DNA of 64,000 nt from Chthoniobacterales bacterium. Its GTDB lineage: Bacteria > Verrucomicrobiota > Verrucomicrobiia > Chthoniobacterales > JACTMZ01. A model generated the notes under the pieces. The model was not told the origin of the DNA. It did no database searches and worked only from the letters and a program-made list of their open reading frames with translations. This document shows, piece by piece, positions 3,683-58,441 of the stretch. Location: NCBI GenBank assembly GCA_018402585.1, contig JAGYIO010000002.1, forward strand, positions 138,070-202,069, written 5' to 3'. Numbering within the stretch: the first letter of the stretch is position 1; each line of letters begins with the position of its first letter. A program made the translations under genes and the position numbers.

Positions 3683-3712
3683 ACTGTTCTAATATTCCAA
3701 CTTGATTAAACC

Positions 3713-4855: not shown

Positions 4856-4871
4856 CCGGAGGCGCGCCGGC

Positions 4872-6193: not shown

Positions 6194-6201
6194 ATGACGG
6201 G

Positions 6202-12534: not shown

Positions 12535-13560
12535 ATGAATCTTTTCTCTCTCGGCCTGAGTCATCACACCGCCGCGGTTTCCTTGCGCGAACGCTTTGCG
12601 GTGGGCGCTGACCAGACTGATGCCGTGATGCGCGGCTTGCGCGAGGGCGCGGGGCTCGAGGAAGTCGTTCTCCTTTCGACCTGCAATCGCGTCGAGGTCT
12701 ACGGGGTGGCGCAGGATCCTGCCGCCGCGATGGAAATCGCGCTCGCCGCCCTGCAGCGTCGCGCGGGTCGTGCCGCGGAGTTCGCCCGCTTCAACGGTGC
12801 CGGCTCGGTGCATCACCTTTTCCGGGTCGCGGCCGGCCTTGATTCCATGGTGCTGGGCGAGACTGAGATCCTTGGTCAAGTCAAGGACGCTTACGCTGCC
12901 GCCTTCGGTGCCGGTCACACTTCCGCGGTGCTCAACCGGCTCTTCCAGCACGCCTTCCGGGCGGCCAAGCAGGTGCGCAGTGAGACCGAGATCGGCCGCG
13001 GTGCGGTTTCTGTCGGTTCGGCCGCAGCCCGACTCGCCTCCTCGGACCTCGGCGACCTTTCCACCTGCCGCGCCCTCCTGCTCGGTGCGGGCGAAGCGGG
13101 CGAAGACGTGGCCCGGAGCCTGCATGCGCGCGGACTGATGGAACTGCTCGCCGCCAACCGCACCTTCAGCCGGGCCGAAGCGCTGGCCGCCGCCTTGGGC
13201 GGGCGCGCCGTGGAATTCGAGCGCTGGCGTGATCATCTGGCCACCGTCGACATTGTCATCGCCTGTGCCGCCACTCCGTCACGTTTGTTGCGGGCCGACG
13301 AACTAGCCCCTTCCCTCGCGGTGCGCGAGGAGCGTCCGCTCTTTCTCCTTGATCTCGCCGTGCCGCGCAACTTCGACCCGGCCATCCGGATCCTGCGCGG
13401 TGCCACCCTGCATGACATCGACGACCTCGAAGCGGTGGCCCGCGAGGGCGAATCGCTGCGCGCGGCCGAGGTGGAAAAGGCGGAGGTGGTCATTGCCGCG
13501 CAAGTCGCCGAATTTGCCCGCCGTGCCGCGGAGCGCCCGGCCTTCGCGGCGGCGGCCTGA
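12535..13560 (+). CDS. hemA: Glutamyl-tRNA reductase (short form)
   Basis: LSTCNRVE, GLDSMVLGETEILGQVK, DLAVPRN. Confidence 0.95.
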   Translation: MNLFSLGLSHHTAAVSLRERFAVGADQTDAVMRGLREGAGLEEVVLLSTCNRVEVYGVAQDPAAAMEIALAALQRRAGRAAEFARFNGAGSVHHLFRVAAGLDSMVLGETEILGQVKDAYAAAFGAGHTSAVLNRLFQHAFRAAKQVRSETEIGRGAVSVGSAAARLASSDLGDLSTCRALLLGAGEAGEDVARSLHARGLMELLAANRTFSRAEALAAALGGRAVEFERWRDHLATVDIVIACAATPSRLLRADELAPSLAVREERPLFLLDLAVPRNFDPAIRILRGATLHDIDDLEAVAREGESLRAAEVEKAEVVIAAQVAEFARRAAERPAFAAAA

Positions 13561-13566
13561 GCCATC

Positions 13567-14475
13567 ATGTCCGAATTCATCCTCGCGACGCGCGGCAGCG
13601 AGTTGGCCCGCGTGCAGTCCGGCATGGTGCGCGAGGGTCTGCTCCGCGCCTGGCCCCAACTCACGGTGCGCGAGGACGTGGTGCGCACGACCGGCGACCG
13701 GCATGCGGAGGAAAACCTGACCACGCTGGGCGGATCGGGAGTCTTCACCAAGGAACTGGAGGCGGCGCTCTTCGACCATCGCGCTGCGGCTGCGGTGCAC
13801 AGTCTGAAGGATTTGCCCGTGGATCTTCCGTCCGGCCTGGTCCTTGGCGCCATCCTGCCCCGGGGGGCAGCCGGCGATGTGCTGGTGAGCAGACAACCCG
13901 GCGGACCGGCCGGTCTGCCCGCCGGGGCCCGCATCGGGACAGGCAGCCCGCGGCGGGCCGGCATGATGCGCGCCCTGCGCCGCGAAGCCGTAGTGGTTCC
14001 GATCCGCGGGAACGTGCCCACCCGCATCGCTCGCGTGGGCGAAGGGCAGTTTGACGCCGTGATCCTCGCCGCGGCCGGCCTCGAGCGGCTCGGATTTCCG
14101 GTCGACGGCCCCTTTCTCCTGGGCCCGGTGCTGCTTTACTCTTTTTTGCTCCCGTCCTTCTTGCCGGCCCCGGGACAGGGGGCCATTGCGGTCGAAGTGC
14201 GCGCCGACGACGGCCCGGCCCGGGAGATGGTCGGCGTGCTCGACGATGCCGGAACGGCCGCGGCCGTGCGGGCCGAACGCTCGGTCCTGCGGGCCATCGG
14301 GGGCGGGTGCCATCTGGCCCTCGGAGCACTCGGCCGGGTGGAGGGCGATCGGTTGCATTTGCAGGCGGTTCTGTTTGACCACCCCGGCGGGGAGCCGAAG
14401 ATGGCCGAGTTGAGCGGGGCCCGCGCGGAGGCCGGAGAACTCGGGAGCGCGGTGGCCGCGTTGTTACTTTTATGA
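13567..14475 (+). CDS. hemC: Porphobilinogen deaminase
   Basis: ATRGSELA, GVFTKELE, AVHSLKDLP, IRGNVPTR, PAPGQGA. Confidence 0.96.
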   Translation: MSEFILATRGSELARVQSGMVREGLLRAWPQLTVREDVVRTTGDRHAEENLTTLGGSGVFTKELEAALFDHRAAAAVHSLKDLPVDLPSGLVLGAILPRGAAGDVLVSRQPGGPAGLPAGARIGTGSPRRAGMMRALRREAVVVPIRGNVPTRIARVGEGQFDAVILAAAGLERLGFPVDGPFLLGPVLLYSFLLPSFLPAPGQGAIAVEVRADDGPAREMVGVLDDAGTAAAVRAERSVLRAIGGGCHLALGALGRVEGDRLHLQAVLFDHPGGEPKMAELSGARAEAGELGSAVAALLLL

Positions 14476-15974
14476 AAAAAGGAAAATGCTTTCTCGTCGG
14501 GGCCGGTCCGGGTGACCCGGGCCTGCTTACCCTGCGTGGAAACGAAGTGCTCGGACGCGCGGAGCTCGTGGTCTATGACCATCTGGCCAATCCGGAATTG
14601 CTCGGGCTGGCTCCGGAGACAGCCGAGTTGCTCTACGCGGGGAAAAAACCGGACGACCACAGTATGACCCAGGAAGAGATCAACTGCCTGCTCGTCGAGC
14701 AGACGGCGGCCGGCCGTCTGGTTGTCCGACTCAAGGGTGGAGACCCCTATGTTTTCGGCCGCGGGGCGGAGGAAGCCGGGGCCTTGGCCGCCGCCGGCCT
14801 CGACTTCGAGGTGGTGCCCGGAGTCAGCTCCGCCTTGGCCGGGCCGGCCGCCGCCGGTATCGCGGTGACGCAGCGCGGGGTGAATGAGGATCTGAGTATT
14901 TTTAGTGGACATCAGGATCCGGAAAGCGAGGAAGGGCGCGAATTCTACCGCGGGCTGGGGGCGCGGGGTGGCACGCTGGTCATGTTGATGGGGCTGGAGC
15001 GTTTGTCCGGCATTGCCCGTGAACTGCAGGCCGGCGGGGCCTCGCCGGATTTGCCGGTTGCCGTGGTCCGCCGCGCCACGATGGGCGACCAAGTCACGGT
15101 GCGTGCCCCGCTCTCCGAGATCGCCGCCCGCGTTGCTGCCGCGGGGCTGCGTCCGCCCGCGGTCATTGTTTTCGGCGCGGTCGCCGCGGCCGACCACGCG
15201 CTGCTCTGTCCGCGGCCCTTGACCGGTCGCCGCATTGTCGTGACCCGGAGCCGGGTTGGTGCCTCGAAATTGGCCGGCGCCTTGCGCGACCTTGGGGCCG
15301 ATGTGTACGAGATGCCGCTGATCAAAGGCGAGAAACCGGAGAATTTGCGCGAATTTGCCGAGTTGGTCCAGGACGCGCACGGCTACGAGTGGATCGTTTT
15401 CACCAGCGCCAACGGGGTGGATGCTTTCTTCGAGATTTTCTACAAGCTGTACGACGATGCCCGGGAAATCGGCGGGACGAAGTTCGGCGCGGTCGGGGCC
15501 GCCACGGCGCAGCGGATCAAAGACTGGCATTTCCACGTGGACCTCGTGGCCGAGGAGTTCCAGGCCAAGTCACTTGCTGCGACCTTCCGGGACTACACCG
15601 ACGTGGAAAATGTGAAAATGCTCGTGGTTCGCCCGGCCGAGACCAGCGGCGGGCTCGCCCTCGAGCTGACGAAAATGGGGGCGATCGTCGATCAAGCCAT
15701 CGCCTACCGCACGGTGGCCGAGAGGACAGACCGGACCCGCGCGCGCCAGCGCTTCGCGGAGGAAGGGGCCGATCTCGTGGTTTTCACCAGCTCTTCGACC
15801 GTGCGGAATTTTTTCGCTTTGAAGCTCAAAATGCCGAAAGGCCTCCAATTTGCTAGCATTGGACCAGTGACCACCGGGACCATGGCGGAATTTCAGGTCA
15901 AGCCGTCTATCAAAGCTAAGCAGCATGATATCAACGGTTTAGTCCAAGCTATTTCCGCCTTCTACGCGGCCTGA
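14472..15974 (+). CDS. cobA: Fused uroporphyrinogen-III C-methyltransferase / uroporphyrinogen-III synthase
   Basis: LVGAGPGDPGLLT, RLKGGDP..FGRG.EE; C-terminal HemD motifs FTSANGV, FTSSSTV, SIGPVT. Confidence 0.93.
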   Translation: MKKGKCFLVGAGPGDPGLLTLRGNEVLGRAELVVYDHLANPELLGLAPETAELLYAGKKPDDHSMTQEEINCLLVEQTAAGRLVVRLKGGDPYVFGRGAEEAGALAAAGLDFEVVPGVSSALAGPAAAGIAVTQRGVNEDLSIFSGHQDPESEEGREFYRGLGARGGTLVMLMGLERLSGIARELQAGGASPDLPVAVVRRATMGDQVTVRAPLSEIAARVAAAGLRPPAVIVFGAVAAADHALLCPRPLTGRRIVVTRSRVGASKLAGALRDLGADVYEMPLIKGEKPENLREFAELVQDAHGYEWIVFTSANGVDAFFEIFYKLYDDAREIGGTKFGAVGAATAQRIKDWHFHVDLVAEEFQAKSLAATFRDYTDVENVKMLVVRPAETSGGLALELTKMGAIVDQAIAYRTVAERTDRTRARQRFAEEGADLVVFTSSSTVRNFFALKLKMPKGLQFASIGPVTTGTMAEFQVKPSIKAKQHDINGLVQAISAFYAA

Positions 15975-16067: not shown

Positions 16068-16101
16068 TTGACCTTTATTGAGATTGAGACACAGTCGCAG
16101 T
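16068..16101 (+). promoter_or_regulatory. Putative -35 (TTGACC) and Fur-like operator upstream of the heme-uptake operon
   Basis: TTGACC 16068-16073; tandem ATTGAG-ATTGAG and imperfect palindrome ATTGAGAC-aca-GTCGCAGT 16083-16101. Confidence 0.45.
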
Positions 16102-16174
16102 ATTGAGTGCGGCGCTAAAAGATGCTCTCTCATTTGGCGGTCGGCCGTAATCGTGTAATTTATCCTAACTATCT

Positions 16175-16867
16175 ATGATCACCCGTCATTCCTTTGGCGC
16201 CATGTTCGCACTTTGGGCCTCTCTTCTCCCAAGCTCCGCCTTGCTTGTTCCTTTCGCCGAGGACTTCACCTTTGGTGCCGCGAACTGGCTCAACGGCGCG
16301 AGTACCGCGCCTGCTTGGTCCGCCGCGGGTGGGGTTGATGGCGGGGCTTATATCTCGGCGCCGGGTGCCATCACGGCCGGGGGATTTGGTACAATTGTCT
16401 TTCGCGGTAACGCTTCCGCCGCTGCCAGCGGCGACGCGTTTGTCGGGGATTGGATCTTAGGAGGGGTGAGCACTTTCAGCACTTACCTTTCCCATGATGC
16501 CCCCGTCGCCCTGAACTTTTACGCTCGCTTGGATGCCGGTTCGGGTCGTGCCGGCAGCACGGTCGACTTCAGCGTGGCTCCGGGCGCTTGGTTCCAGCTT
16601 GAGGTTCCCATTGTCAACGCACCGACGTCATTCCAATCTTATGGTGCCGGGACGTTCGCCACAGTCTTCAACGGGATCCAAAACGTGCAGATCGCTTTGT
16701 CGGCGACGCAGGACCCGAGCACGGCGGGACAAACCTACAACGTTGCCTTGGACCAAGTGGCCATCGTGCCTGAGCCGGGGACCCTTGGTCTGGTCGCTTC
16801 AGGTCTCGCGGCTCTCTGGTGGTTGCGCTGCCGCAGTTTTTTTCGGAAGCCTCTCAACAAACCTTGA
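16175..16867 (+). CDS. PEP-CTERM sorting domain protein
   Basis: Signal peptide; C-terminal VPEP + TM helix + basic tail. Confidence 0.9.
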   Translation: MITRHSFGAMFALWASLLPSSALLVPFAEDFTFGAANWLNGASTAPAWSAAGGVDGGAYISAPGAITAGGFGTIVFRGNASAAASGDAFVGDWILGGVSTFSTYLSHDAPVALNFYARLDAGSGRAGSTVDFSVAPGAWFQLEVPIVNAPTSFQSYGAGTFATVFNGIQNVQIALSATQDPSTAGQTYNVALDQVAIVPEPGTLGLVASGLAALWWLRCRSFFRKPLNKP

Positions 16868-17859
16868 ACACTCGCCGTCAACCGTTGCTGCCGCTCATCC
16901 GCCTCGTGCTCTGCGCCGGGGTGGTCTTTGTCGCCTTATTGCCCGGAGCCAACGCGCAACCGGTCAGTCCCGATCTGGCCGGTGCCACTTCTTATGACGG
17001 CTGGACCAGTCTTTCTCGCTACACTTACCCCGATTTCCCCGGCTTCCCCGGCACCTCCGACTGGCCTCGGCCCCTTGCCCCTCTCGCGCCCGGGTCAGGT
17101 GACGCCGAGATAACCCGCTTGGCGCCCGCGGCCGGCGGCACGGGTGGCGCTTACCCCGCGGAGGAATCACTTTACTTCGGTAGTTTTCTTCAGATCCCCA
17201 ACGCGCTCGGGGGAACTTTGCGGGTGGGCGATGCGACGCCGCTGGGCGGAGTGAAGACGGTGGTGCTGCAGATGCAAATCGGCGAGGTGGAGGGCTACGA
17301 TTTCGTCAGTCCCGGCGGTGCGCCCGCGCTCAAGGTGAACGGCGAAACGGTCGGCCGTGCCTCACTCCCACCCGTGCTCCTCAACCGTTTTCAAAGCGGA
17401 ACTTACCCAAGTCCCGAAACAGGCCTTGATGAGCCGGTCTTCGTCAATACCTGGGGTTTCCAGTGGGACGTCAGTAGCCTCGGCCCCATCAGTTCTCTCG
17501 GGATCGACTTCAGCGCCGTAACCCATGCGCAAATTTACGAAGTCCGCCTCGACCAGTCTGATGTCGCGCAGAGCGGGGCGGTTTTCATTCCCCGCTTTCT
17601 GGCCCTGGCCGGCATGGGAGCACCGCTTTATGATGAAATTGAAAGCAGCACCTCGGTCACGCACAGCTTCATCGGGCCGCCTGCGAGCACCTTGATCGTG
17701 GAATACAGCGAGCACGCGGACCAATCAGCATGGACCCCTTCCGCCCCGGTCGAAACAAATTCGGGCGCTTTCCAAGTCACCTTCACTGCGCCGGGGGATC
17801 GACGCGCTGCCTGGAGCCGCAGTATGTTTTTCCGCGCCAAATATCCATCAGACCCATGA
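16864..17859 (+). CDS. Hypothetical secreted beta-rich protein in the heme-uptake operon
   Basis: Signal peptide ending ANA-Q; TTG start overlapping the upstream stop (inferred). Confidence 0.75.
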   Translation: MNTRRQPLLPLIRLVLCAGVVFVALLPGANAQPVSPDLAGATSYDGWTSLSRYTYPDFPGFPGTSDWPRPLAPLAPGSGDAEITRLAPAAGGTGGAYPAEESLYFGSFLQIPNALGGTLRVGDATPLGGVKTVVLQMQIGEVEGYDFVSPGGAPALKVNGETVGRASLPPVLLNRFQSGTYPSPETGLDEPVFVNTWGFQWDVSSLGPISSLGIDFSAVTHAQIYEVRLDQSDVAQSGAVFIPRFLALAGMGAPLYDEIESSTSVTHSFIGPPASTLIVEYSEHADQSAWTPSAPVETNSGAFQVTFTAPGDRRAAWSRSMFFRAKYPSDP

Positions 17860-18647
17860 AAACCACGCGGAACACCGCCTTTACCCTGATCGAACTGCTT
17901 GTTGTCATAGCCATCCTGGCGGTCTTGGCCGGCATTGGCAGTGCGGGGCTTTTGTCCGTCGCGGATAAAGCGAAGACCGCAACCGAGACCGCTGCAGCCA
18001 GGACGCTTATTTCCGCTTATCAAGCCGCTGCTGCAGACAATGGCGGACGTTACCTCGCGGCGCGCGATACCTCGGCGGTAAACGTGCTTAACGGCAAGGG
18101 CAAACCCGTCAGCAACCGTCAGGTGCGGGCCCGCTATCCTTTCCGATTGGCGCCTTATTTCAATTACGCGATCGAAAGCACGCTCCTGGCCGGAGACAAC
18201 CGCCAGCAACTGCTCAAGGTCATGAACCTTTCGAGTCCCTCCGGCAGCATGTATGATTACGGGGTTAGTGCCTTTCCGTCCTTCGGTATCAACCGCTACT
18301 TTGTCGGCGGCACGGCCGGCCAGACCAACAGCGACTGTGTCCATTCGGTCGGACAAGCCGATCGCTCCATCATTGCTTTTGTCTCTGCGGGCAGCAGTGA
18401 AATCAATGGCTACGAATACGTGCGGGCACCCGGCGAACCCGGCGGAGGCTGGGGCGGGGGAGAGTGGACTGAGGATTCGGACCCTTCCCAATTCGGCTTC
18501 GTCCATCCGCGCCACGGCGGGAAAGCGATTGCCGCTTTCCTGGATGGCTCCACCCGACTATTGACCATTGAGGACTTGCGCGACATGCGGCTTTGGAGCC
18601 GGCAGGCCGCGCAAGAAAACAATCCGAAATACACTGCCGGCCAGTAA
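17856..18647 (+). CDS. Prepilin-type N-terminal cleavage/methylation protein with H-X9-DG motif
   Basis: AFTLIELLVVIAIL; C-terminal H-GGKAIAAFL-DG; ATGA overlap. Confidence 0.9.
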   Translation: MKTTRNTAFTLIELLVVIAILAVLAGIGSAGLLSVADKAKTATETAAARTLISAYQAAAADNGGRYLAARDTSAVNVLNGKGKPVSNRQVRARYPFRLAPYFNYAIESTLLAGDNRQQLLKVMNLSSPSGSMYDYGVSAFPSFGINRYFVGGTAGQTNSDCVHSVGQADRSIIAFVSAGSSEINGYEYVRAPGEPGGGWGGGEWTEDSDPSQFGFVHPRHGGKAIAAFLDGSTRLLTIEDLRDMRLWSRQAAQENNPKYTAGQ

Positions 18648-18669
18648 GGCCAACCCGACCACCACTATT

Positions 18670-19302
18670 ATGACCACCACCGCAGCACCCACCGGCATCA
18701 TGGGCCGGCTCAAAGCCGGGACGGCCGAGCAACATGCCATCGCCGAAGCCAAGCCGCTGGAAGCTGCGCTCGTCGCGGGCTCCATCGACCACGACCAATA
18801 CAAACAGTATCTCGGCCAGCGCTGGCTCATCCATCGCGAACTCGAGGCGGCGACGGACCGTGCGCTCGGCGAGGACCAGCGTCTTTCCCAGCTCGGACTA
18901 CCCGGTCTCTACCAGACCGCGAATATCGAAGCCGACCTCGCTTACCTGGGGGTCGAGACGGGCTCGATCAAACCGCTCAAGGGCGCGCAAGACCTGGTCG
19001 AGACCATCCACCAAGCGCCGTCCCCCGCCGTGCTCATGGGCATCTATTATGTTTTCGAGGGGAGCAAAAACGGTGCGCGTTTCATTGCCCGCGCCCTTGG
19101 GAAAGCTTGGGGCAAGACGGATGGCGAGGGGATGAAATACCTCGATCCGCACGGCGAAGCGCAGCGCGCACTGTGGCTGAAATTCCGCGAGGACATGAAT
19201 GCCATCGATTGGTCCTCCGAAGAGCAGGACACCATGGTCAAAGCGGCACAGGATACCTTCGACGCGATTTCCGCGCTGGACGACGAAATCCACGTGGCCT
19301 GA
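18670..19302 (+). CDS. Heme oxygenase (biliverdin-producing family)
   Basis: LK.GT...H..AE proximal His motif; YVFEGSKNG distal helix motif. Confidence 0.85.
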   Translation: MTTTAAPTGIMGRLKAGTAEQHAIAEAKPLEAALVAGSIDHDQYKQYLGQRWLIHRELEAATDRALGEDQRLSQLGLPGLYQTANIEADLAYLGVETGSIKPLKGAQDLVETIHQAPSPAVLMGIYYVFEGSKNGARFIARALGKAWGKTDGEGMKYLDPHGEAQRALWLKFREDMNAIDWSSEEQDTMVKAAQDTFDAISALDDEIHVA

Positions 19303-19322
19303 CCGCACCTGTCTCCAGCCCG

Positions 19323-20153
19323 ATGCTTCGTCCGGCGATTATCCTGGCCGTCCTGCTCACCGCGCTGACCGCGCGAGCCGAGTCAGTCCGTATTGTCACG
19401 GCAGGCGCGGCGGTAACCGAAATTGTTTCTCGCCTCGGCCTTGCGCCGCAGATTGTTGCGGTCGACACCTCAAGCAAATATCTGGAGGAGACGCGGGACA
19501 AACCCGATGTCGGCTATGTCCGCATGCTTGGGGCGGAGGGCATTCTTTCGCAGAAGCCCGATCTCGTCCTCGTTTCCGGCGAGGCGGGTCCGCCGCCCGT
19601 GCTCGAGCAGATCAGAGCGGCGGGCGTGGACGTGGTGGTCATTTCCAACGGCTACACCCTCGACAATATCGACGACAAAATCCGCACCATTGCCGCGGCG
19701 GCCGGGCGGGTCGAAGACGGAGAGAAGCTCATTACCAAGGTCAATGCCGATCTGCAGGCGCTCCGCTCCGCGACGGCCACCAATGAGGGTGAGCGTCCCG
19801 GGGTGGTCTTTCTCCTCGCGCGCCACGGCGGCAACCTCATGGCCGCGGGCACGGAGACCGCGGCGCATGCCATGATCGAGGCCAGTGGCGGACGCAACGT
19901 CTGTGCCTCCTTCAGCGGCTACCAGCCGCTCTCGGCCGAAATTTTTGCCACGGCCACACCTGACTTTGTCATCGTTTCGGAGAGCGTGGGAGGTGATGAC
20001 ACCCAATTGCTGGCGCGTGTGCCGGGACTCGGCGCCACGCCGGCCGGCCGGCAGCTGCGGGTCATTCGCGTCGATGACGCCGCCTTCCTCGGTTTTGGCC
20101 CGCGCACCCCGTCTGCCGCGACCGAGGTCGCCCTGGCCTTGAGAAAGCCGTGA
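19323..20153 (+). CDS. hmuT: Hemin ABC transporter substrate-binding protein
   Basis: AVDTSS, VGYVRMLGAEGILS (Tyr heme ligand), LGFGPR. Confidence 0.88.
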   Translation: MLRPAIILAVLLTALTARAESVRIVTAGAAVTEIVSRLGLAPQIVAVDTSSKYLEETRDKPDVGYVRMLGAEGILSQKPDLVLVSGEAGPPPVLEQIRAAGVDVVVISNGYTLDNIDDKIRTIAAAAGRVEDGEKLITKVNADLQALRSATATNEGERPGVVFLLARHGGNLMAAGTETAAHAMIEASGGRNVCASFSGYQPLSAEIFATATPDFVIVSESVGGDDTQLLARVPGLGATPAGRQLRVIRVDDAAFLGFGPRTPSAATEVALALRKP

Positions 20154-21187
20154 ACGCGGCACGGGAGGACGACTCGCTCCGGCGGGGTCGGGCTCATCGA
20201 CGCCTTTGCTTTCTCGCCGCGCTCTTGCCCCTCGTCCTGCTCATCGCGTCCGCCCTCGGGGCGGTCAACATCGGTTTCGCTGATCTGCGCAATCTTGTCG
20301 CTGCTCCAGCCCAGGTCCCGGAAATTATCCGGGCGGTGTTTTGGGAGATCCGCCTGCCGCGTGTCTTGCTCGCGGCCTTGGTTGGTGCGGCTCTCGCTTT
20401 GGCGGGAGCGGGGGTGCAAGGGCTCTTTCGGAACCCGCTGGCCGACCCCGCGCTGATCGGGGTGAGTGCCGGCGCCGCGGTGGGTGCGGTGGTCTGTTTC
20501 TTTTTTGGCTGGGAAGGTTTGCTCGGTGGCTGGTTGCTGCCTCTGGCCGCTTTCCTCGGCGGTTGGCTCGCGGTGCTTGTCTTGGGCATTTTCCACGCCG
20601 GTTTTGCGGCCGGCGGCACGGCCAAGCTGATTCTGGCCGGCGTCGCGCTCAATGCCATGCTCGGCAGTGTGCTCGGATTTTTTCTTTTCTCGGCCAGTGA
20701 CGATGCCTTGCGCTCCATGACCTTCTGGACCCTTGGCAGCTGCGCCTCGGCCCAATGGCCCCAGGTGGTCGTCCTGCTCGTTTTCCTCGCAGCCGGCATC
20801 ATTCTCCTCTGGCGGAATGCGCGTTCCCTCGATGCTTTGCAATTCGGCGAAGAACAGGCCGCCCATCTCGGAGTGTCGGTCCCGCGGGTGCGCCGCGAGG
20901 TCATTGTGGCCGCCGCCTTGTTGGTCGGCGCGGCCACGGCTTTTGCCGGTACCATCGGTTTTATCGGCTTGGTCGCTCCGCACATGGCGCGCCTTTTGCT
21001 CGGCGGCCTGCATCGCCTCGTGCTGCCAGGAGCTCTCCTGCTCGGCGCCATGCTGCTCGTTCTGGCCGATCTCGGGGCGCGCACTCTGGTCGCCCCGGCC
21101 GAACTCGCGGTCGGAATCCTCACTGCGGTGATCGGCGGACCCTTCTTCCTCGCCTTGCTCTGCCGCCCGTTCTCTGCGTCCACCTGA
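20150..21187 (+). CDS. hmuU: Hemin ABC transporter permease (FecCD family)
   Basis: IRLPRV, QGLFRNPLADP, IGFIGLVAPH. Confidence 0.9.
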   Translation: MNAAREDDSLRRGRAHRRLCFLAALLPLVLLIASALGAVNIGFADLRNLVAAPAQVPEIIRAVFWEIRLPRVLLAALVGAALALAGAGVQGLFRNPLADPALIGVSAGAAVGAVVCFFFGWEGLLGGWLLPLAAFLGGWLAVLVLGIFHAGFAAGGTAKLILAGVALNAMLGSVLGFFLFSASDDALRSMTFWTLGSCASAQWPQVVVLLVFLAAGIILLWRNARSLDALQFGEEQAAHLGVSVPRVRREVIVAAALLVGAATAFAGTIGFIGLVAPHMARLLLGGLHRLVLPGALLLGAMLLVLADLGARTLVAPAELAVGILTAVIGGPFFLALLCRPFSAST

Positions 21188-21981
21188 TGAACCAGCACCT
21201 CCCGTCTCTGGTCGCGGAAAAGGTCACGCTCTCCCGCGAGAAGCGACAGATCCTCGATGGCGTTTCGCTCCGGGTGAGGCCGGGAAAATTGCTGGCCGTG
21301 ATCGGTCCCAATGGCGCCGGAAAATCCACCTTGCTCTCGGTCATGTCTGGATTGTCCAAGGCGGGGAGCGGACAGGTCATGCTCAACGGACGCGCGATCT
21401 CGGACTTCCGTCCGTCCGACCGTGCCCGGCACTGTGCCGTGATGCGGCAAGACAATGCGCGGCCTTCCGGCCTGACTGTGCTCGAAGCGGTCGAGCTCGG
21501 GCGCCTGGCCTATGGCGCCGAGGACGATGTGCGTTCCCTGGCCTGGGAAATGTTGCAGCAGATGGATCTCGCCGATCTGGCCGGACGTGACTGCTCCCGT
21601 CTTTCCGGCGGCGAGTGGCAGCGGGTGGCTTTCGCCCGCACGATGGCGCAAATCTCCGGCGGGGAGACGGCCGGAGTGCTCCTGCTCGACGAGCCGGTTT
21701 CAAGCCTCGATCCCGCCCATCAGCACCAACTTCTCGGCGAGGCCCGCCGCCTGACCCGGGCCGGGCATGGCGTCCTCGCCATCCTCCATGACCTTAATCT
21801 CACGGCGCATTACGCGGATGAGGTGGCCTTGCTCGCGGCCGGACGCATCCATTCCAGCGGTCCGGTGGCCGAGATCATGCGACCCGCGGTCTTGTCGGAA
21901 ATCTACGGCTGCCGGGTGAGTGAAATCCGTGAGGGTGGAGAACGCGCCTTGGTCAGCTTTCCGGCGGAAAAAACGCGCTAG
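21187..21981 (+). CDS. hmuV: Hemin ABC transporter ATP-binding protein
   Basis: GPNGAGKST, LSGGEWQRV, LLLDEP, LHDLN. Confidence 0.9.
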   Translation: MNQHLPSLVAEKVTLSREKRQILDGVSLRVRPGKLLAVIGPNGAGKSTLLSVMSGLSKAGSGQVMLNGRAISDFRPSDRARHCAVMRQDNARPSGLTVLEAVELGRLAYGAEDDVRSLAWEMLQQMDLADLAGRDCSRLSGGEWQRVAFARTMAQISGGETAGVLLLDEPVSSLDPAHQHQLLGEARRLTRAGHGVLAILHDLNLTAHYADEVALLAAGRIHSSGPVAEIMRPAVLSEIYGCRVSEIREGGERALVSFPAEKTR

Positions 21982-33542: not shown

Positions 33543-33594
33543 AGGTCTGAAATCCTTGGCTTGGGCCGGCTTTTACCCGCATGATCCGCTCTCC

Positions 33595-37009: not shown

Positions 37010-37037
37010 CCGGCGGAGGTGGGTTAAGCTGGCTGCC

Positions 37038-42001: not shown

Positions 42002-42083
42002 TCCGGCCTCCGCAGGCGCGTGTTAGCGGGTTGACTTCGTGCAGACCGCTTTGTTTTGCCCTGCTTGGCCGGGCCAAGGGGCT

Positions 42084-42112
42084 TTGACAAGGCGGTCGAG
42101 TGGAAGCATCCT
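42084..42112 (+). promoter_or_regulatory. Putative sigma70 promoter of the T2SS operon
   Basis: TTGACA-N17-CATCCT just upstream of gspG. Confidence 0.45.
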
Positions 42113-42121
42113 TTCACGTTG

Positions 42122-42559
42122 ATGAAATCTTTTTCCAAACGGCTCCGCCGCGAGGCGGGCTACACTTTATTCGAGATCATGCTCGTGCTCGGCATCATTG
42201 CCGTGCTGGTCGGATCGGCCATTTATTTGTTGGTCGGCAATATCGACGTGGCCCGCGAGTCGCGGGTGGAAGCCGACATTCAGAGCATCAGCACCCAGAT
42301 CCGGGTTTACGAAATGCAAAACTTGCGTCCGCCGAGCAGCGCGCAGGGCCTCGCCGCCTTGGTCACGCGCCCATCGGCCGAACCGGCACCACGCCGTTGG
42401 CGGCAACTGCTTGAGAGGGTGCCGCTCGACCCTTGGGGCGAGGAATATGTCTATTACTGGCCCGGGAAAAAGAACGCGTCCGGTTTCGATCTTTTTTCCA
42501 AGGGACCGGATCGCCAGGAGGGCGGGGGCGACGACATCGGCAACGACCCCGGCGAGTAA
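42122..42559 (+). CDS. gspG: Type II secretion major pseudopilin
   Basis: GYTLFE, QGL.ALV..P, DPWG..Y.Y..PG, GPD...G..DDIGN. Confidence 0.93.
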   Translation: MKSFSKRLRREAGYTLFEIMLVLGIIAVLVGSAIYLLVGNIDVARESRVEADIQSISTQIRVYEMQNLRPPSSAQGLAALVTRPSAEPAPRRWRQLLERVPLDPWGEEYVYYWPGKKNASGFDLFSKGPDRQEGGGDDIGNDPGE

Positions 42560-42569
42560 GGCCGAGGCG

Positions 42570-43073
42570 ATGAAAACGATCCGGGCGGTGGCGAAAAGCG
42601 GGCAGCCCGGCCGGCGCTCCGGTGGCTACACGCTGCTCGAGATCGCGCTGGTCGTGACCATCATCGTGCTCCTGGTCGGTGCAGTCGTGCCGCTCACCTC
42701 GGGCTTCGTGCGCGAACAACGTTTGCGCGACTCGGTGCGCGGACTCCTCGTCTTGGCCAAAACGGCGCGGACCGTGGCCATGACCACGGGTCGTGCGGCG
42801 GAGGTGGTCTTCGCCAAGGGTGGCTTTGCTTTGCTGCGGGCGGGCGAGGAAGAGCCTTCGGAGTTGGTGCGCTTGCCGCGCGGCACGCGCTATCAACTCC
42901 TGCCCTTCGGCGCCGACAAAGCGCTGCGTCCGGACGGTCAGCGTTGGATTTTCCAGCCGACCGGCCTGTGCGAACCGCTCACCGTGCGGATCATGGAGGA
43001 CGAGGCCTGGATTGAGGTGCGCTTCGATCCGCTGACCGCCGGAATCGAGGAGGAGAGTTACTACATCCCGTGA
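42570..43073 (+). CDS. Minor pseudopilin (GspH-like)
   Basis: GYTLLE prepilin motif, position after gspG. Confidence 0.8.
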   Translation: MKTIRAVAKSGQPGRRSGGYTLLEIALVVTIIVLLVGAVVPLTSGFVREQRLRDSVRGLLVLAKTARTVAMTTGRAAEVVFAKGGFALLRAGEEEPSELVRLPRGTRYQLLPFGADKALRPDGQRWIFQPTGLCEPLTVRIMEDEAWIEVRFDPLTAGIEEESYYIP

Positions 43074-43450
43074 AAAAGGCCGGTTTCACCCTGCTGGAAA
43101 TGCTCACCGCGATGTTCATGTTTGTCCTCGCGGTGGGCGGACTGGCCATGGCGATGGACAAAATTTTCGCGGCCAATGTGCTGATGCGGCGCGACGGCGA
43201 AGTGCGTCAGCAGCTGGAGTCATTACTCGATGAATCGATGGTCATACCGATCGCCGATCTCGAGCAAGGCCGCGAGGTGGGGCCCGATGCGATGGGCGCG
43301 ACATTTTTTGTCCGGGCCGAACCCGCGGAGTTTTTCAATATGAACGGGGAAGAACTCACCGGTTTGTGGTGGATCACGGTGCGCGCGGAGTGGACCGAGG
43401 GACGGGAGGATCAAGCGTGGGAGGAAAAATTCCTGCGTTACGAACCATGA
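43070..43450 (+). CDS. Minor pseudopilin (GspI-like)
   Basis: GFTLLE, 126 aa. Confidence 0.78.
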   Translation: MKKAGFTLLEMLTAMFMFVLAVGGLAMAMDKIFAANVLMRRDGEVRQQLESLLDESMVIPIADLEQGREVGPDAMGATFFVRAEPAEFFNMNGEELTGLWWITVRAEWTEGREDQAWEEKFLRYEP

Positions 43451-44124
43451 GAAACGCCGCCCGCGGATTCACCCTTTTCGAGATGGTGGTGGTCCTTGCC
43501 ATCTTCGTCCTGCTCGCCGGCGGCATTTATGCGACGGTCAATGCGGCGGTACGCGCCACGGCGACGCTGACCGAGGAGAACCTGCAAATCCAGCGGCTCA
43601 ACGCTTTTGTTTCGCTCATGCGGCGGACCTTCCACAACCTGCCGGCCAACGCCCGGTTCGCCGGCGGGGTACGTGCGGAAGGGGGCGACGGTTTTCCCGA
43701 GATCACGCTGCGCGATGCGCCCGGCGTCTTTGCCTGGGGCCTGGGCGGCCCCTCGGCCGGGACCGCGTTGCTCACCGCGCGTCCGCGCCTCGGCGGCGGT
43801 CGTGAACTCAGCCTCATGCTCCTGCCGGGGTCACTCGGAGAAATGGAGCGGCGCGACGGGTTGGAGCGTGGGGCCTGGATGCGCTTGCTGCCCGACCTGC
43901 GCGAGGTCAAGTGGCGCTTCTACAACTTGGAGCAGCAGGAATGGGTGGAGCAATGGCTTGAAGGGGAGCGACCGCCGCTGGTCGAGCTCAACTTGCAGTT
44001 GCTCGGCGAGGAAGTGCCCCGTCAGTTTATTTTCTGGCTGCCGCCGGTCAAGGAAGTGGCCCTCAACGAGGCCGGCTTGGAAGCGCAAGGCCCCCCGCCG
44101 GAATTGGAGGTCGAGCTGCCGTGA
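43447..44124 (+). CDS. Minor pseudopilin (GspJ-like)
   Basis: GFTLFE; C-terminal W...W....P..VEL. Confidence 0.8.
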   Translation: MRNAARGFTLFEMVVVLAIFVLLAGGIYATVNAAVRATATLTEENLQIQRLNAFVSLMRRTFHNLPANARFAGGVRAEGGDGFPEITLRDAPGVFAWGLGGPSAGTALLTARPRLGGGRELSLMLLPGSLGEMERRDGLERGAWMRLLPDLREVKWRFYNLEQQEWVEQWLEGERPPLVELNLQLLGEEVPRQFIFWLPPVKEVALNEAGLEAQGPPPELEVELP

Positions 44125-45047
44125 GCGCACAGTTCCGTCCCTCGGGTGCCGCCCTGCTCCTCGTGCTCTGGGCCATCACCGTGATTTCCTTCGCCGTGCT
44201 TTGGATGGCCGGCGTGGTCAATCTCGAACTCGAGACGACCGTGTCCGATTCGGCCGGTTTGCGCGCGCGTCAGATTGCGGTGAGCGGAGTGGCCCTCGGC
44301 CTGCATCCGCAGGTGAAGCGCGAGGAAACCGGGTTGCTCAACCGCGACTTCGGGGCCGGCGAGCGCATGGAGGTGCGCATCCGCGGCGAGGGTGCGCGTT
44401 TCAACATCAATCAATTACTTCAGGACCAGGACCGCATCACCTTGCTGAATCTTTTCACCTTGTGGGGGCTCACGGCGGACGAGGGGAATGCGCTGATCGA
44501 CAAGCTCGCCGATTGGGCCGACGAGGACGAGTTCCGCACCGGATTCGGCGGGGCGGAGCGTACGGAATACGAGGCGGCCGGCATTACCGACGCACCGGCT
44601 AACCGTCCGTTCCGCAGCGTCGCGGAAATGGGCCGCGTCCTTGAGATGGAAAAGCTCGCGGCGCTCAAGCCCGATTGGGCCGAGAGTTTCACCATTTTCG
44701 GTGACGGCCTGATCGACGTGAATGAGGCAGAGGCCGACGTGCTCCAAGCCGCCACGGGCATCACCCCGGAAATGGTGCAGGGCATCTTGCAGCAGCGCCG
44801 CGGCGCCGACGGGGTCGAGCCTTCGGAAGATGATCTGCGTTTCGATGATGTCAGCCAGGTGGCCGGCTGGTTGGCCGGTTCGACCTTGCCGGCGGAACAG
44901 ATCATGGGGCGCCTTACCACGGAGAGCTCGGTCAAAAGAATTGATAGCCGGGGCATCGTGGGCGAGCGTTCCCGTCTGATCTCCGTGGTCGCCCAGGCGG
45001 GCGAAGGCGGGGAAGCTGCCACTTACCTGCTATGGGAGGAAAAATGA
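44121..45047 (+). CDS. gspK: Type II secretion protein K
   Basis: GAALLLVLW, RFNIN, DWAD.D, IDVN.A. Confidence 0.88.
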   Translation: MSAQFRPSGAALLLVLWAITVISFAVLWMAGVVNLELETTVSDSAGLRARQIAVSGVALGLHPQVKREETGLLNRDFGAGERMEVRIRGEGARFNINQLLQDQDRITLLNLFTLWGLTADEGNALIDKLADWADEDEFRTGFGGAERTEYEAAGITDAPANRPFRSVAEMGRVLEMEKLAALKPDWAESFTIFGDGLIDVNEAEADVLQAATGITPEMVQGILQQRRGADGVEPSEDDLRFDDVSQVAGWLAGSTLPAEQIMGRLTTESSVKRIDSRGIVGERSRLISVVAQAGEGGEAATYLLWEEK

Positions 45048-46312
45048 AAAGCCCGCGCCAGATACGCCGCGCCCTCTTCCGTCCGGCCTCCGCCGGGTGG
45101 CAGAAATGGGAGCAGGACGAGGCCAGGCTTTGGCGCGAAACGGGTGGAGCGGCCGATTTGTCCGAATTGAAACCGGAGGCCGGCGCCTTGGTGGCCGTGC
45201 CGGTGCGTCGCGCCTTTTCGCTCGCCGTCTGGGTGCCAGCCGAAGATCCGTCTTTGTTCGGAGACCTCATCTTCACCCAGCTTGAATTACGGGGACTGGC
45301 CGGCCGCACGCGGGAAACGACCTCCTTTTCCTGGCAAGAGGTGGCTCGCGAGGGCGGCGAGGCTTTGCTCCATGCGGTGGTTCTACCTTCAAATCTTGCG
45401 CCGCGCTACTGGCATGGTGCGGTAACCGAATACGCCGTTTCGCCTTCCTGCCTGCCGCTCGCCCCGGATGCGGTGACGGTCTGGGAGGAGGAAGGCGGAT
45501 GGGTGGCCGGAGTCACGCGCGGGGACCGGTTGCTCCACTTCCAACCGCTGGCCGAGAAAACACCCTCGGCCCCAATGGCCATGGAAATTTGGCTGATGCA
45601 GGCGCCGCTCGAGGCGGGGCGTATGCTGAGCGCCAACGCACGCGTCACGCTTTACTACCAAGGCACTGCTGCCCCTGACTTGTCGGATTGGCGCAGCGCC
45701 GGCGAGCTCGAAGTCGCGGCGGAGAAATTTCCCCCGCCGGTGCTGCCGGCCGCACCGCTTGATTGCCTGCCTCTGCCGGTGCGCGATTTGCAGCGCACCA
45801 AAGAGACGGGGGCCCGGCGCCAGAAAATCGCCCTCTTGGCCGCGGCCGTTTATTTTGTTCTCGTTCTGGCCCTTGCGGCCAACACGCTCTGGCTTTGGTG
45901 GCGGGCGGATTCTCTGCAGGCCACGATGGCGGGTGAGGCGGGCGAAGTGGATGCGGTGCGCGCGGCCATGCAGCGCTGGAACGCGATCGAACCGGCCCTC
46001 GATCCGGTTGGTTATCCGCTCGAAGTGCTCTATCAAGCTGCGCGCTTGCTCCCAAAGGACGGGGTGCGTTTGACCCTCTTCCAGATGAATGTGCAGCGCG
46101 TGATCCTCGCCGGGGAGGCTTCGACCCTGCAGGCGGCGCAGCGTTTCCAGGAGGATGTACGCAAAAATCCGGATCTGACCGCTTACGATTGGACGATGGA
46201 AAGCCCGCGCCCGCTCCCCACCGGTAGTGCGCGTTTCCAGATCGACGGCGTGCGCCACGGCGCGGTCGCCGCGGATGGAGAGGAGGCAAGCAATGAGAGC
46301 ACTGACGGCTAA
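45044..46312 (+). CDS. GspL/PilM-PilN-like T2SS platform protein
   Basis: Cytoplasmic domain, single TM, periplasmic L.GEA domain; operon position. Confidence 0.65.
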   Translation: MKSPRQIRRALFRPASAGWQKWEQDEARLWRETGGAADLSELKPEAGALVAVPVRRAFSLAVWVPAEDPSLFGDLIFTQLELRGLAGRTRETTSFSWQEVAREGGEALLHAVVLPSNLAPRYWHGAVTEYAVSPSCLPLAPDAVTVWEEEGGWVAGVTRGDRLLHFQPLAEKTPSAPMAMEIWLMQAPLEAGRMLSANARVTLYYQGTAAPDLSDWRSAGELEVAAEKFPPPVLPAAPLDCLPLPVRDLQRTKETGARRQKIALLAAAVYFVLVLALAANTLWLWWRADSLQATMAGEAGEVDAVRAAMQRWNAIEPALDPVGYPLEVLYQAARLLPKDGVRLTLFQMNVQRVILAGEASTLQAAQRFQEDVRKNPDLTAYDWTMESPRPLPTGSARFQIDGVRHGAVAADGEEASNESTDG

Positions 46313-46832
46313 GGAAAAAAAATTACTCCTCGCCTTGGTCGGCGCACTTTTCGTGCTGCTCAATGTTGTCGGCTTGCAGGTTTTCCTCAACCGCCAGCGG
46401 GCGCTGCAAAGCAGTATCGTGCAGCTCCAGAGTCAACTGACCGAAGGCCGCGCCATTCTCGAGGAGAAGACGATCTGGCAGGAACGTGCGGCCTGGCTCG
46501 ACCAGCATCAACCCGGGGACGACGTGACCACGACAGATGACGACGCGAAGTTTTATGAATTTGTCGAGAGCAGTGCCCGGAACGCCGGGCTCACTTACAC
46601 GCGGCGCGATGCGGGAACCCAGCCGGTTGGTGGAACCTATGCCGAGGTCTTCGATTCATCGCAGGTCAAAGGCAAGATGGAGTCGCTGGTCAAATGGCTC
46701 AGCGAGTTGCAGCAACCCAAGGCCTTTCGCGCCGTCAAACAGATCTCGATCAAAAGCGGCGAACCGCCCGAGGTCATGGCCGAAGTCGAGGTGGCGCGTT
46801 GGTATCGTCCGGTGCAAGGAGGAGAGCGATGA
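46293..46832 (+). CDS. GspM-like T2SS protein
   Basis: LT.KEK.LL + TM + coiled coil; L.KWL..LQ. Confidence 0.7.
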   Translation: MRALTAKEKKLLLALVGALFVLLNVVGLQVFLNRQRALQSSIVQLQSQLTEGRAILEEKTIWQERAAWLDQHQPGDDVTTTDDDAKFYEFVESSARNAGLTYTRRDAGTQPVGGTYAEVFDSSQVKGKMESLVKWLSELQQPKAFRAVKQISIKSGEPPEVMAEVEVARWYRPVQGGER

Positions 46833-47680
46833 GAGGGGTGCTTCTTTTCCTCCTTGCCGCCCTGCTTCTCCTCGGCATCCCCACATTCGCCCGCGGCGAT
46901 GAAGACCAGCCGGATGCGTCTGCCCTGCTCAAGGTTCCTTTAGTCGAGGCGCGCCCGAGCGGCGTCGAGGGCGAAGAAAATGTGGCCCCGCCCGACCCTT
47001 CCCCCACGCCCTCGCTGCTCGCCGAGACAGACCCGCCGGTGGCCGGGGAACCTGCTCCACCCGCGGACGATGGCATCACCCGGCCAGCCTTCCCTCTCTC
47101 GCGTTATCAACCCTTGTGGCAACGCTCGCCCTTCCAACTGGAATCCGTTGCTCCGCCGGTTGAGTCGGCCGGCTTGGCCCAACGCTTCGCACTGACTGGC
47201 ATCGCAGAGATCAATGGCGAGCCCATGGCCTTTGTCATGGAGCGCGCCACGCAAAACCGCTTGATGGTCAAAGCGAACAGCACGGAAGGCGGTGTTTCTT
47301 TGGTGCAAGTCGATGTGCAGCAGAAATATACGGACTCCTCGGCCACGCTGCGCCAGGGGGCGGAGGTCGGGGTGGTCCGCTTTGAGGCCGCAGCCGCCAT
47401 GGCTCCCGGGATGCCTCAGCCTGGCATGCAGGTGCCCCGGCCGATCCCGCAAGCGATACCCCAACCTGGGGTGCCTCCTTCAGCCGCCGCTTTCCCCGGG
47501 GTCCCCCCGGCCGCACCGATCCCCGGCCAGCCCGCACCAGGCATACCTCAAGCTCCCGGCGCAGTGCCCCAAGTGTCCAGTTCGGGCAACCCGGCGAACG
47601 GGCAAGTCGAGGGCGGCCAAGGGCAGATGCCCCCGCCTCGCATCATCCGGCGCCGGGCTCTCATCCCCGCCGCGCCTTGA
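46829..47680 (+). CDS. Proline-rich hypothetical T2SS accessory protein (possible GspC analogue)
   Basis: RSPF motif, LTGI core, Pro-rich flanks; directly before the secretin. Confidence 0.6.
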   Translation: MRGVLLFLLAALLLLGIPTFARGDEDQPDASALLKVPLVEARPSGVEGEENVAPPDPSPTPSLLAETDPPVAGEPAPPADDGITRPAFPLSRYQPLWQRSPFQLESVAPPVESAGLAQRFALTGIAEINGEPMAFVMERATQNRLMVKANSTEGGVSLVQVDVQQKYTDSSATLRQGAEVGVVRFEAAAAMAPGMPQPGMQVPRPIPQAIPQPGVPPSAAAFPGVPPAAPIPGQPAPGIPQAPGAVPQVSSSGNPANGQVEGGQGQMPPPRIIRRRALIPAAP

Positions 47681-47711
47681 GAAACTTGCTAAGCATGCTT
47701 TAATTCCATCC

Positions 47712-50234: not shown

Positions 50235-50249
50235 CGGGAGAGGCATCCT

Positions 50250-56445: not shown

Positions 56446-58015
<1,570 letters not shown>

Positions 58016-58187
58016 CAAGACTGTCCGGTTTACCGGACATTCAGGTCGACGATTAACTCGGAATGCAGTTTATTCCGATATTTCGTGGTCACGTGAAAAC
58101 GTGGACCACCTGGTGACGAATAACCCACAACTCAGTTTTTGTGCCCTGCCCTCTAAAAAAGCCCGATCCGGGCAAATTATTTTTCCC

Positions 58188-58260: not shown

Positions 58261-58323
58261 AGCGAAGCGAGGAGGCCTCGTATCTAATGCGAAGCCTAAC
58301 CAGGAAAGATCGCCATGGCGATC

Positions 58324-58339: not shown

Positions 58340-58344
58340 TGTGG

Positions 58345-58435: not shown

Positions 58436-58441
58436 TTTCTT

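Follow-up and report, generated by a model that had tools for sequence, protein, structure and literature searches.

The window analysed here is a stretch of 64,000 nucleotides from a Chthoniobacterales bacterium of the Verrucomicrobiota (assembly GCA_018402585.1, contig JAGYIO010000002.1, forward-strand positions 138,070 to 202,069), and positions are counted from its first letter. At 16175-21981, on the + strand, it carries seven co-oriented and tightly packed genes, which encode, in order, a PEP-CTERM protein (G1), a secreted protein (G2), a prepilin (G3), a heme oxygenase, HmuT, HmuU and HmuV. The best reading of these seven genes is that they form one regulated operon for heme use, in a bacterium in which no TonB-dependent receptor was detected. 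As an overall explanation, held at a probability of about 0.5, G3 would be a cargo-dedicated minor pilin that exports or displays G2, together with G1, as the heme-capture module of the operon.

All seven genes that the original prediction had placed in a co-oriented cluster with mostly overlapping stop and start codons are present in the open reading frame calls and in the Pfam and NCBIfam scans. The genes overlap at four of the six junctions (as TTGA, ATGA, GTGA and one shared base), and the remaining gaps are 22 and 20 nucleotides. G1 (16175..16867) has a signal peptide, a domain of about 170 residues and a PEP-CTERM anchor (VPEPGT...WWLRCR). G2 (16864..17859) belongs to an unnamed family of Sec-exported proteins. 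A longer open reading frame of G2 runs from GTG 16819; the likely start is TTG 16864, which overlaps the stop codon of G1 as TTGA and yields a classic signal peptide that ends in ANA, with Q following. G3 (17856..18647) is a prepilin-type protein with a class III signal, Glu5, an enlarged globular head and an H-X9-DG motif. The genes for heme oxygenase (18670..19302), HmuT (19323..20153), HmuU (20150..21187) and HmuV (21187..21981) complete the cluster.

The heme oxygenase is of the cytoplasmic HmuO/HemO type, has no signal peptide and matches PF01126 with an E-value of 8e-23 (81.7 bits, cut-off 23). Its best solved relative is C. diphtheriae HmuO (1iw0, E 5e-9), and the alignment of its TAEQH segment with TAQAH of that enzyme places His on His, the residue which we take to be the proximal heme ligand. 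HmuT, a periplasmic heme-binding protein (PF01497, 2.8e-32), HmuU, a FecCD-type permease (PF01032, 4.6e-88), and HmuV, an ATP-binding cassette (ABC) ATPase (PF00005, 1.6e-26), are encoded by adjacent, overlapping genes. All of the top seven solved relatives of HmuT bind heme or hemin (1e-47 to 5e-35), with 5gj3 (1e-47) and Y. pestis HmuT (3md9, 8e-47) the closest, followed by BhuT, ShuT, PhuT and HutB, whereas B12-binding proteins reach just 3e-10. The Tyr of the conserved VGY segment, presumably the axial heme ligand, is aligned in all five alignments that were printed. For HmuV, the best family by far is NF010068 (heme ABC transporter ATPase), with 254.9 bits against a cut-off of 261. From these sequence relationships it is well founded that HmuT, HmuUV and the heme oxygenase would import heme and open it.

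Structure prediction, which the original prediction had named as a check, gives a jelly roll like those of carbohydrate-binding modules (CBM) and an Ig-like domain for G2, and a type IV pilin fold for G3. G2 has no match to any Pfam or NCBIfam family in the profile scans. Its own family has at least 141 homologs, which have in common a conserved N-terminal core of about 200 residues. In the short forms a PEP-CTERM anchor comes immediately after this core; in the others the core leads into a C-terminal domain of about 90 residues, which may contain Ig-like inserts. In the AF2 model (pLDDT 86.7), the jelly roll comprises residues ~55-250 of the 346-residue open reading frame and the Ig-like domain residues 260-341. 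The matches returned by VIA are jelly rolls of the CBM, MAM and ephrin-receptor types and a phage baseplate protein, at Z 8-9.5, which for the predicted model is the mark of a common fold. A profile search of PDB sequences with G2 gave nothing below an E-value of 0.75, and a protein atlas search with it returned unnamed verrucomicrobial clusters only.

In G3, the prepilin motif AFTLIELL, with Glu at mature position 5, is recognised by PF07963 (29.9 bits) and TIGR02532 (28.6 bits). This Glu5 (E13) is invariant, and the full prepilin signal is retained, in all 51 aligned members of the G3 subfamily. The AF2 model (pLDDT 91.7) shows a pilin whose beta-sheet head, against which the long N-terminal helix packs, is enlarged. 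In VIA, each of the 21 highest-ranking matches is a type IV pilin or pseudopilin, led by 6xxd_A at a modest Z of 5.4 (rmsd 2.9 over 113 residues), and Foldseek against the PDB returned nothing at E<=0.001. A prepilin peptidase gene is present in the genome. By its signal and its modelled fold G3 is a type 4 filament subunit, with putative processing and assembly. The H-X9-DG label that it had been given stands for the literal motif (H220-x9-D230-G231) and does not extend to the model of that name, TIGR04294, which the window's own protein fails to match at E<=1; 35 of the 51 subfamily members do match it. At least 283 homologs of G3 were found, and the JGI annotation of G3 homologs is that of H-X9-DG proteins. 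No match to PF07596 (DUF1559) was obtained with G3 at E<=0.01. Pilin-like proteins had also been described as expanded, which is not so in this genome, where a regular-expression census counted 14 prepilin-like open reading frames.

G2 and G3 are predicted to bind each other. The complex was predicted with mature G2 (residues 48-346) and the head of G3 (residues 30-263), each with its own alignment and with heme included. The ipSAE, a confidence value of the model, was 0.80, 0.81 and 0.80 for G2-G3 and 0.00 for all three controls; the partner pLDDT was 91, and at least 86% of the contacts were common between runs. The ipSAE mark is reached by 116 of 157 solved complexes and by 2 of 215 mismatched pairs, counts that are only approximate here because own alignments were used and heme was present. 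The added heme carries no information on heme binding, its position being neither reported nor scored. On G2, the predicted interface comprises residues 67-80, 123-125 and 193-204, which are the conserved motifs of the family. We know of no solved complex of similar proteins, so a score drawn from the memory of the model is unlikely. The proposal of a substrate-specific pilin-like protein is borne out to the extent that G3 is a specific orthogroup predicted to bind the secreted protein encoded next to it.

The linkage of the surface and pilin genes to heme genes is strongly conserved in the gene-neighbourhood survey, another of the checks named with the original prediction. In metagenomes, surveyed from the G3 side, 80 of 163 confirmed loci were kept, 71 of them with a G3 of at least 45% identity; a locus was taken as testable with at least 400 nucleotides upstream for G2 and at least 300 nucleotides downstream for heme oxygenase. 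At that identity, G2 adjoins G3 in 64 of 65 testable loci and heme oxygenase adjoins it in 46 of 47. The heme oxygenase gene is either co-oriented or convergent with the pair, and where it is co-oriented, hmuT comes next in all six metagenome loci with enough sequence. Among genomes, 25 loci with G2 were found; tblastn within them detects a G3-like gene in 20, a heme oxygenase gene in 16, G1 in 11 and hmuT in 10. Two of the five loci without a G3 match end within 150 nucleotides of G2, and another of the five, from a Pirellulales metagenome-assembled genome, has a DUF1559 prepilin gene right after G2. Within the genus, 14 of 31 genomes have a G3 ortholog and 20 have heme oxygenase, which is present in all 14 carriers of G3.

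A second partner and pilin pair occupies the same place elsewhere. Four sister genomes of the same genus that have heme oxygenase and no G3 ortholog show the order G1, X, another pilin, heme oxygenase and hmuTUV, in which X is a secreted protein of 378 residues unrelated to G2 and the neighbouring pilin is 33-34% identical to G3. In one genome of another class of the phylum, one relative each of X (36% identity, 2e-37) and of its neighbouring pilin (36%, 1e-34) come after hmuT-hmuU-hmuV-hemS/chuX; this genome has six TonB-dependent receptor matches, none of them in this locus. That two distinct pairs are each tied to heme genes, once to heme oxygenase and once to HemS, is the strongest argument that the pairing is part of heme use rather than an accident of neighbourhood. 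As shown by comparative genomics, a pair of partner and pilin, with a PEP-CTERM anchor in cis or in trans, is part of this heme pathway. The alternative partners were also considered as relatives of G2 and rejected: in hhalign runs with single sequences, X (of L037), a 307-residue protein of L046 and a neighbouring protein in L042 gave no sign of kinship with the profile of G2, apart from a faint likeness in the C-terminal domain of X (E 0.02).

The anchor appears to be supplied by G1. This protein matches PF07589 with 24.4 bits (cut-off 20.7) and TIGR02595 with 21.2 bits (cut-off 16), and an exosortase gene is present in the genome (PF09721, 166.6 bits, at C12:107496-108287), together with about 30 PEP-CTERM-like open reading frames. 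For the long form of G2, G1 is found upstream in 11 of the 12 loci from genomes and in 22 of the 28 from metagenomes. Upstream of the short forms of G2, which have their own PEP-CTERM segment, it occurs in none of 5 genome loci and none of 18 metagenome loci. We infer from this distribution that G1 probably supplies in trans the anchor that the short forms carry in cis, and perhaps it holds the C-terminal domain of G2. G1 was not accepted as a paralog of G2, since its match to the G2 profile covers just 40 columns at 11% probability, and the protein atlas search with G1 returned only PEP-CTERM clusters.

A candidate promoter and operator lies at 16068..16099 on the + strand, ahead of G1. It consists of TTGACC at 16068-16073, followed at 16075-16099 by a 25-nucleotide imperfect palindrome, TTATTGAGATTGAGACAC(A/G)ATCGCA. 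The 25-mer recurs with no or one mismatch upstream of G1 in 11 related loci, namely 10 of the 12 G1-bearing loci with enough upstream sequence and L039, and it is unique in the 2.46 Mb genome even when six mismatches are allowed. It is read as a promoter with the operator of a dedicated regulator. A scan with the sigma-70 consensus gave no promoter, Rfam gave no riboswitch or other cis-acting RNA ahead of the operon, and no convincing terminator was found after hmuV. With up to five mismatches, the motif was not found in the loci of the convergent type or in the subdivision-6 loci L018 and L023. The convergent clade has a conserved palindrome of its own, AATTAGA-N3-TCTAATT or near variants, about 90 nucleotides upstream of G2 (L024 at about 8800-8830, L076 and L092; five loci were scanned). 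Within the 3' end of G1, just before the start of G2, a weak hairpin followed by a run of seven T (16817-16845) could lower read-through into G2.

Two lake-water metatranscriptome libraries from one study each hold a single contig, of 4411 and 4321 nucleotides and about 93% identity, that spans the cluster from 16100 and 16113 to 20513 and 20413, respectively, that is, from G1 through hmuT into hmuU. The contigs start just behind the palindrome, and their depth is 77.5 and 45.2 compared with 5-7 just upstream. This fits co-transcription in a close relative. Stretches left uncovered by contigs in the RNA runs X3 and X4 are not taken as evidence. The tight junctions, the conserved and genome-unique site and the bridging contigs together argue for one operon.

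No TonB-dependent receptor is encoded in the cluster or the window, as the original prediction had stated, and the search was extended to the whole assembly (2.46 Mb, 35 contigs, 89.6% complete), which gave no match to either the barrel (PF00593) or the plug (PF07715). The barrel is also absent from all 15 further genomes of the genus that were sampled (86-100% complete). In a sample of the order, 105 of 151 genomes have a barrel match, and the positive controls were detected. Given these counts, the absence of the receptor is, as far as sampled, a trait of the lineage rather than a gap in the assembly. The genome has two TonB_C and eight ExbD matches despite the lack of a detected receptor; within the window, an ExbD-family gene at 33409-34011 is followed by a gene for an 826-residue tetratricopeptide repeat protein (33409-36434 in all). 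In the loci of the convergent type, an ExbB-ExbD-TonB set lies 2-4 kb upstream of G2-G3 (L027 at 2986-6621, where a BBP2-type porin gene is also near the set), and ExbB and TonB are found upstream of the pair in L024 (4536-6612). Distant relatives of G2 are located near TonB-dependent receptors in Haloferula and Luteolibacter. In Haloferula luteola (L032), a cobalamin riboswitch at 13225-13347, followed by a DUF4465 gene and a TonB-dependent receptor gene, lies 3.3 kb downstream of such a distant homolog; L033 has no such riboswitch, and the observation is a weak lead only.

Genes for a type II secretion or pilus-like machine, on which the original prediction relied, are present in this bacterium, among them a type II secretion cluster and the genes for PilT-like ATPases and for a prepilin peptidase. 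The type II secretion cluster, identified by Pfam and genome scans, is complete and is a candidate machine; it lies on the + strand at 42056..53206, 20 kb downstream of the heme operon. It comprises the genes for GspG (42056-42559), a pseudopilin (43366-44124), GspK (44121-45047), a GspM-like protein (46227-46832), the secretin (47292-50234), GspE (50250-51968) and GspF (51968-53206). This cluster is not near the heme cluster in related loci. The genome has three secretin open reading frames and five T2SSE-family ATPases, two of which are short, PilT-like (365 and 332 residues) and adjacent. In two further regions (C12:334011-339390 and C12:291184-296270), a DUF1559-type prepilin gene is next to ComEC, and another prepilin gene is near two adjacent short PilT-like ATPase genes.

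Several other prepilin genes of this genome are orphans located immediately after, or in one case before, a gene for a large secreted protein (C30:2897-6855, C23:152112-155994, C2:22297-24872, C34:16549-21467 and C33:123028-127088). The neighbouring proteins, the putative cargo, are a GH16 protein, two PATR-repeat proteins (one with PEP-CTERM), LTD-domain proteins and a Big_7 protein. An ABC importer is beside none of the other prepilin genes whose neighbourhoods were inspected. The pattern suggests one cargo and one pilin as a general arrangement, and a GH16 enzyme as cargo indicates export or display. In Vibrio cholerae, the export of TcpF occurs through its binding to TcpB, the minor pilin at the tip (PMC10120004). 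With the orphan pilin genes following those for secreted proteins, and with TcpB-TcpF being a case of export, export or display is favoured over import as the primary role of the pilin.

In the mechanism proposed here, G2 would be exported by Sec and would dock by its three conserved loops onto the enlarged head of G3, as the complex model has it. By analogy with TcpB-TcpF and CofB-CofJ, and in view of the orphan pilin genes that follow those for secreted proteins, G3 would serve a type II secretion or type IV pilus machine as a minor (tip) pilin dedicated to one cargo. It would take G2 through the secretin, and G2 would then be displayed at the cell surface or released there, with G1 providing the envelope anchor that the short forms of G2 carry themselves. 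G2, with G1, may capture heme or a hemoprotein, a role to which only the genomic linkage points. Heme would most likely return to the periplasm as the filament depolymerises or retracts with its loaded tip, and otherwise through another channel. HmuT would pick up the periplasmic heme, HmuUV would carry it across the inner membrane, and the heme oxygenase would open it to give iron. The original prediction had the pilin carry heme inward; its conserved linkage, the lack of a detected receptor, the specific pilin and the machines all stand, whereas the export precedents favour an outward role.

Several observations weigh against this explanation. Many of the surveyed loci come from related lake populations and are thus not independent events. 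With increasing distance the linkage fades: next to G3-like genes of less than 45% identity, heme oxygenase is found in 0 of 9 loci and a G2-like gene in 3 of 6 testable ones, and in a phylum sample of 400 genomes, six have a G3-like gene at E<=1e-35; at four of these six loci the divergent neighbour is a G2-like gene, and heme genes are absent for about 5 kb around. In one genome (G152, 65% complete), G1 directly precedes heme oxygenase, and the G3-like gene is on another contig, where G2 has no match. Where heme oxygenase is convergent, hmuT is adjacent in none of the 24 metagenome loci that extend 1.5 kb or more downstream. Five small genomes with G2-G3 and convergent heme oxygenase (G557-G561, loci L022 and L024-L027; 1.7-2.2 Mb) yielded neither a HmuT homolog nor a FecCD permease; each has one TonB-dependent receptor match, with an open frame of about 1000 residues in three. 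These genomes and the 24 loci without hmuT indicate that the pair is independent of adjacent HmuTUV, needing none next to it or perhaps none at all. The module is also present in genomes with 2-18 TonB-dependent receptor matches. As for the proteins themselves, the fold likeness of G2 is limited to generic jelly rolls of the carbohydrate-binding and MAM types (Z<=9.5), Foldseek against the PDB gave nothing for it at E<=0.001, G3 has no invariant His, and some orthologs have Y or F in place of the H of H-X9-DG. The ipSAE expresses model confidence rather than a measurement. The RNA-library contigs are those of a relative, prove neither one transcript nor its start, and come from libraries that may hold DNA. 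The aminotransferase encoded in the loci of the convergent type was considered as HemL and rejected; it is of the acetylornithine/putrescine type and hence provides no tetrapyrrole link.

Of the other explanations, one, the model of the original prediction, assigns transport itself to the pilus. The G3-G2 tip of a retractile filament would bind heme outside the cell, and retraction through the secretin would bring it to HmuT, replacing the TonB-dependent receptor. DNA uptake by pilus retraction is an established precedent, and this explanation draws on the lack of a TonB-dependent receptor in the genome and the sampled genus, on the two side-by-side short PilT-like ATPases of the T2SSE family and the three secretin open reading frames, and on the retention of heme oxygenase by G2-G3 even where hmuTUV is missing, so that the pair looks central to the trait. 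Precedents among related bacteria also favour it: pili-like fibres of Planctomycetes bind dextran, some label appears internalised and fibre-bound uptake has been proposed (PMC5394234), and a review relates that mucin uptake by Akkermansia needs pilus-encoding genes of its utilisation locus, with pili-dependent uptake proposed (PMC12418764). The documented precedent for a pilin with a partner is nevertheless one of export (PMC10120004), and the orphan pilins of this genome adjoin enzymes such as GH16, which are necessarily outward-bound. Some genomes carry the module along with TonB-dependent receptors, and at none of the loci examined is a retraction ATPase or secretin gene linked to the cluster. 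Import by the pilus, with its putative inward direction, is considered unlikely.

A periplasmic relay is a more doubtful explanation still. Unpolymerised G3 would serve as a stalk in the inner membrane, and periplasmic G2 with G1, the latter held by its C-terminal helix, would pass heme that has entered through a porin to HmuT or another transporter of the inner membrane. The long N-terminal helix of G3 would anchor it in the inner membrane before assembly, PEP-CTERM proteins are likewise anchored in the inner membrane until they are processed, and the occurrence of the pair without HmuTUV would fit a general periplasmic chaperone. This is set against the prepilin signal and Glu5, which are kept in all 51 members and are tied to processing and filament assembly, and against the exosortase, whose presence makes it probable that G1 is processed; the periplasmic heme relays known to us do without pilin-type parts. 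Slightly less probable again is an adhesin or display module for iron starvation, which would not itself bind heme, would attach for example to algal cells or detritus as sources of released heme, and would be co-regulated with the heme genes. The CBM-like fold of G2, the pairs of G2-like and G3-like genes without heme genes in the distant loci L043, L044, L045 and L047, and the distant relatives of G2 near TonB-dependent receptors, one of them close to the cobalamin riboswitch, would all suit such a module, but the tight tie of the G3 orthogroup to heme oxygenase (46/47) and the independent tie of a second partner and pilin type to hmuTUV-hemS do not. That the genes are chance or hitch-hiking neighbours of no common function is very improbable: only the lack of biochemical data counts for it, while the linkage is kept across several verrucomicrobial lineages and in two gene orders, an upstream site is shared by the genes and RNA-library contigs bridge them.

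The surroundings of the operon include other genes of heme and iron metabolism. Directly upstream and in the same orientation lies a trio of genes (12535..15974, + strand, by Pfam and NCBIfam), hemA (12535-13560), hemC (13567-14475) and a cobA/hemD fusion (14472-15974), and the same trio precedes the cluster in L015, L017, L016 (partial), L036, L059, L069 and L070. A ferritin/Dps-like gene (PF00210; iron storage) is present in the same region at 36849-37490. An rRNA operon with 16S, two spacer tRNAs, 23S and 5S occupies 56446-61876.

Heme ABC importers, heme oxygenase, PEP-CTERM proteins and pairs of pilin and exoprotein are each already known. Like the HmuTUV, ShuTUV and PhuTUV systems with HmuO or HemO, the present operon has a binding protein, a FecCD permease, an ABC ATPase and a heme oxygenase. 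It differs from the HmuTUV systems in that no TonB-dependent receptor is found in the operon, the window, the genome or the sampled genus, and three other envelope genes take the lead. Hemophore systems include HasA-HasR, HmuY-HmuR and the NEAT-domain relays. The role proposed for G2 and G1, surface or extracellular capture of heme for a neighbouring uptake system, would resemble theirs, but no similarity of G2 to hemophores is listed by the PDB profile search, Foldseek or VIA, and the partner here is a pilin and not a TonB-dependent receptor or a cell-wall relay.

As in TcpB-TcpF of Vibrio cholerae and CofB-CofJ of enterotoxigenic Escherichia coli, a protein of pilin fold and a Sec-exported protein are encoded side by side, with binding that is predicted here and shown there (PMC10120004, PMC9565799 and PMC6048534). 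There is no detectable sequence relation or specific fold relation to these pairs; the major pilin of the toxin-coregulated pilus is found at just Z 3.2 among many pilins. In contrast to TcpB-TcpF, the predicted contact involves folded loops of G2 instead of an N-terminal export signal that is disordered, the operon around the pair serves nutrient uptake rather than pilus formation, and G3 comes from the H-X9-DG group, which is typical of Planctomycetes and Verrucomicrobia. The relation of G2-G3 to TcpB-TcpF would be one of analogy, not of membership. Type IV pilus DNA uptake (DNA-binding minor pilins with ComEC), the crateriform fibres of Planctomycetes and the Akkermansia mucin locus are likewise similar in that filaments or fibres take hold of an external substrate and deliver it to the cell or into it (PMC5394234 and PMC12418764). 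None of these precedents is for heme or a small cofactor and none is tied to an H-X9-DG pilin or an ABC importer; import is putative in the present case.

What appears to be new is a heme operon led by a dedicated module of pilin and partner in a lineage without a detected TonB-dependent receptor, and, also apparently new, a function assigned to an H-X9-DG pilin. Planctomycetes and Verrucomicrobia have many prepilin-like proteins of the H-X9-DG/DUF1559 kind, and the literature searched, which comprised papers open without subscription, yielded no functional study of them; in the same literature nothing relevant on heme uptake with type II secretion or a pseudopilin was among the matches listed. 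One orthogroup of the H-X9-DG type is now linked with a particular substrate pathway, that of heme, and with a particular partner, for which the predicted interface is confident. A broader view, in which H-X9-DG pilins are substrate-specific tips of retractile filaments that, with a docked protein, draw nutrients such as heme through a secretin by a TonB-independent route, is speculative and on balance doubtful. If true, it would account for the Verrucomicrobia that have no receptor as well as for the large, unexplained H-X9-DG/DUF1559 families of the Planctomycetes and Verrucomicrobia. The carriers are abundant freshwater bacteria of a genus without a detected TonB-dependent receptor, and the operon makes testable both the role of the pilin-like proteins and the acquisition of heme by a diderm that lacks such receptors. 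Even the conservative reading, with G3 exporting or displaying G2, would extend the principle of TcpB-TcpF from the colonisation factors of pathogens to the acquisition of nutrients in the environment.

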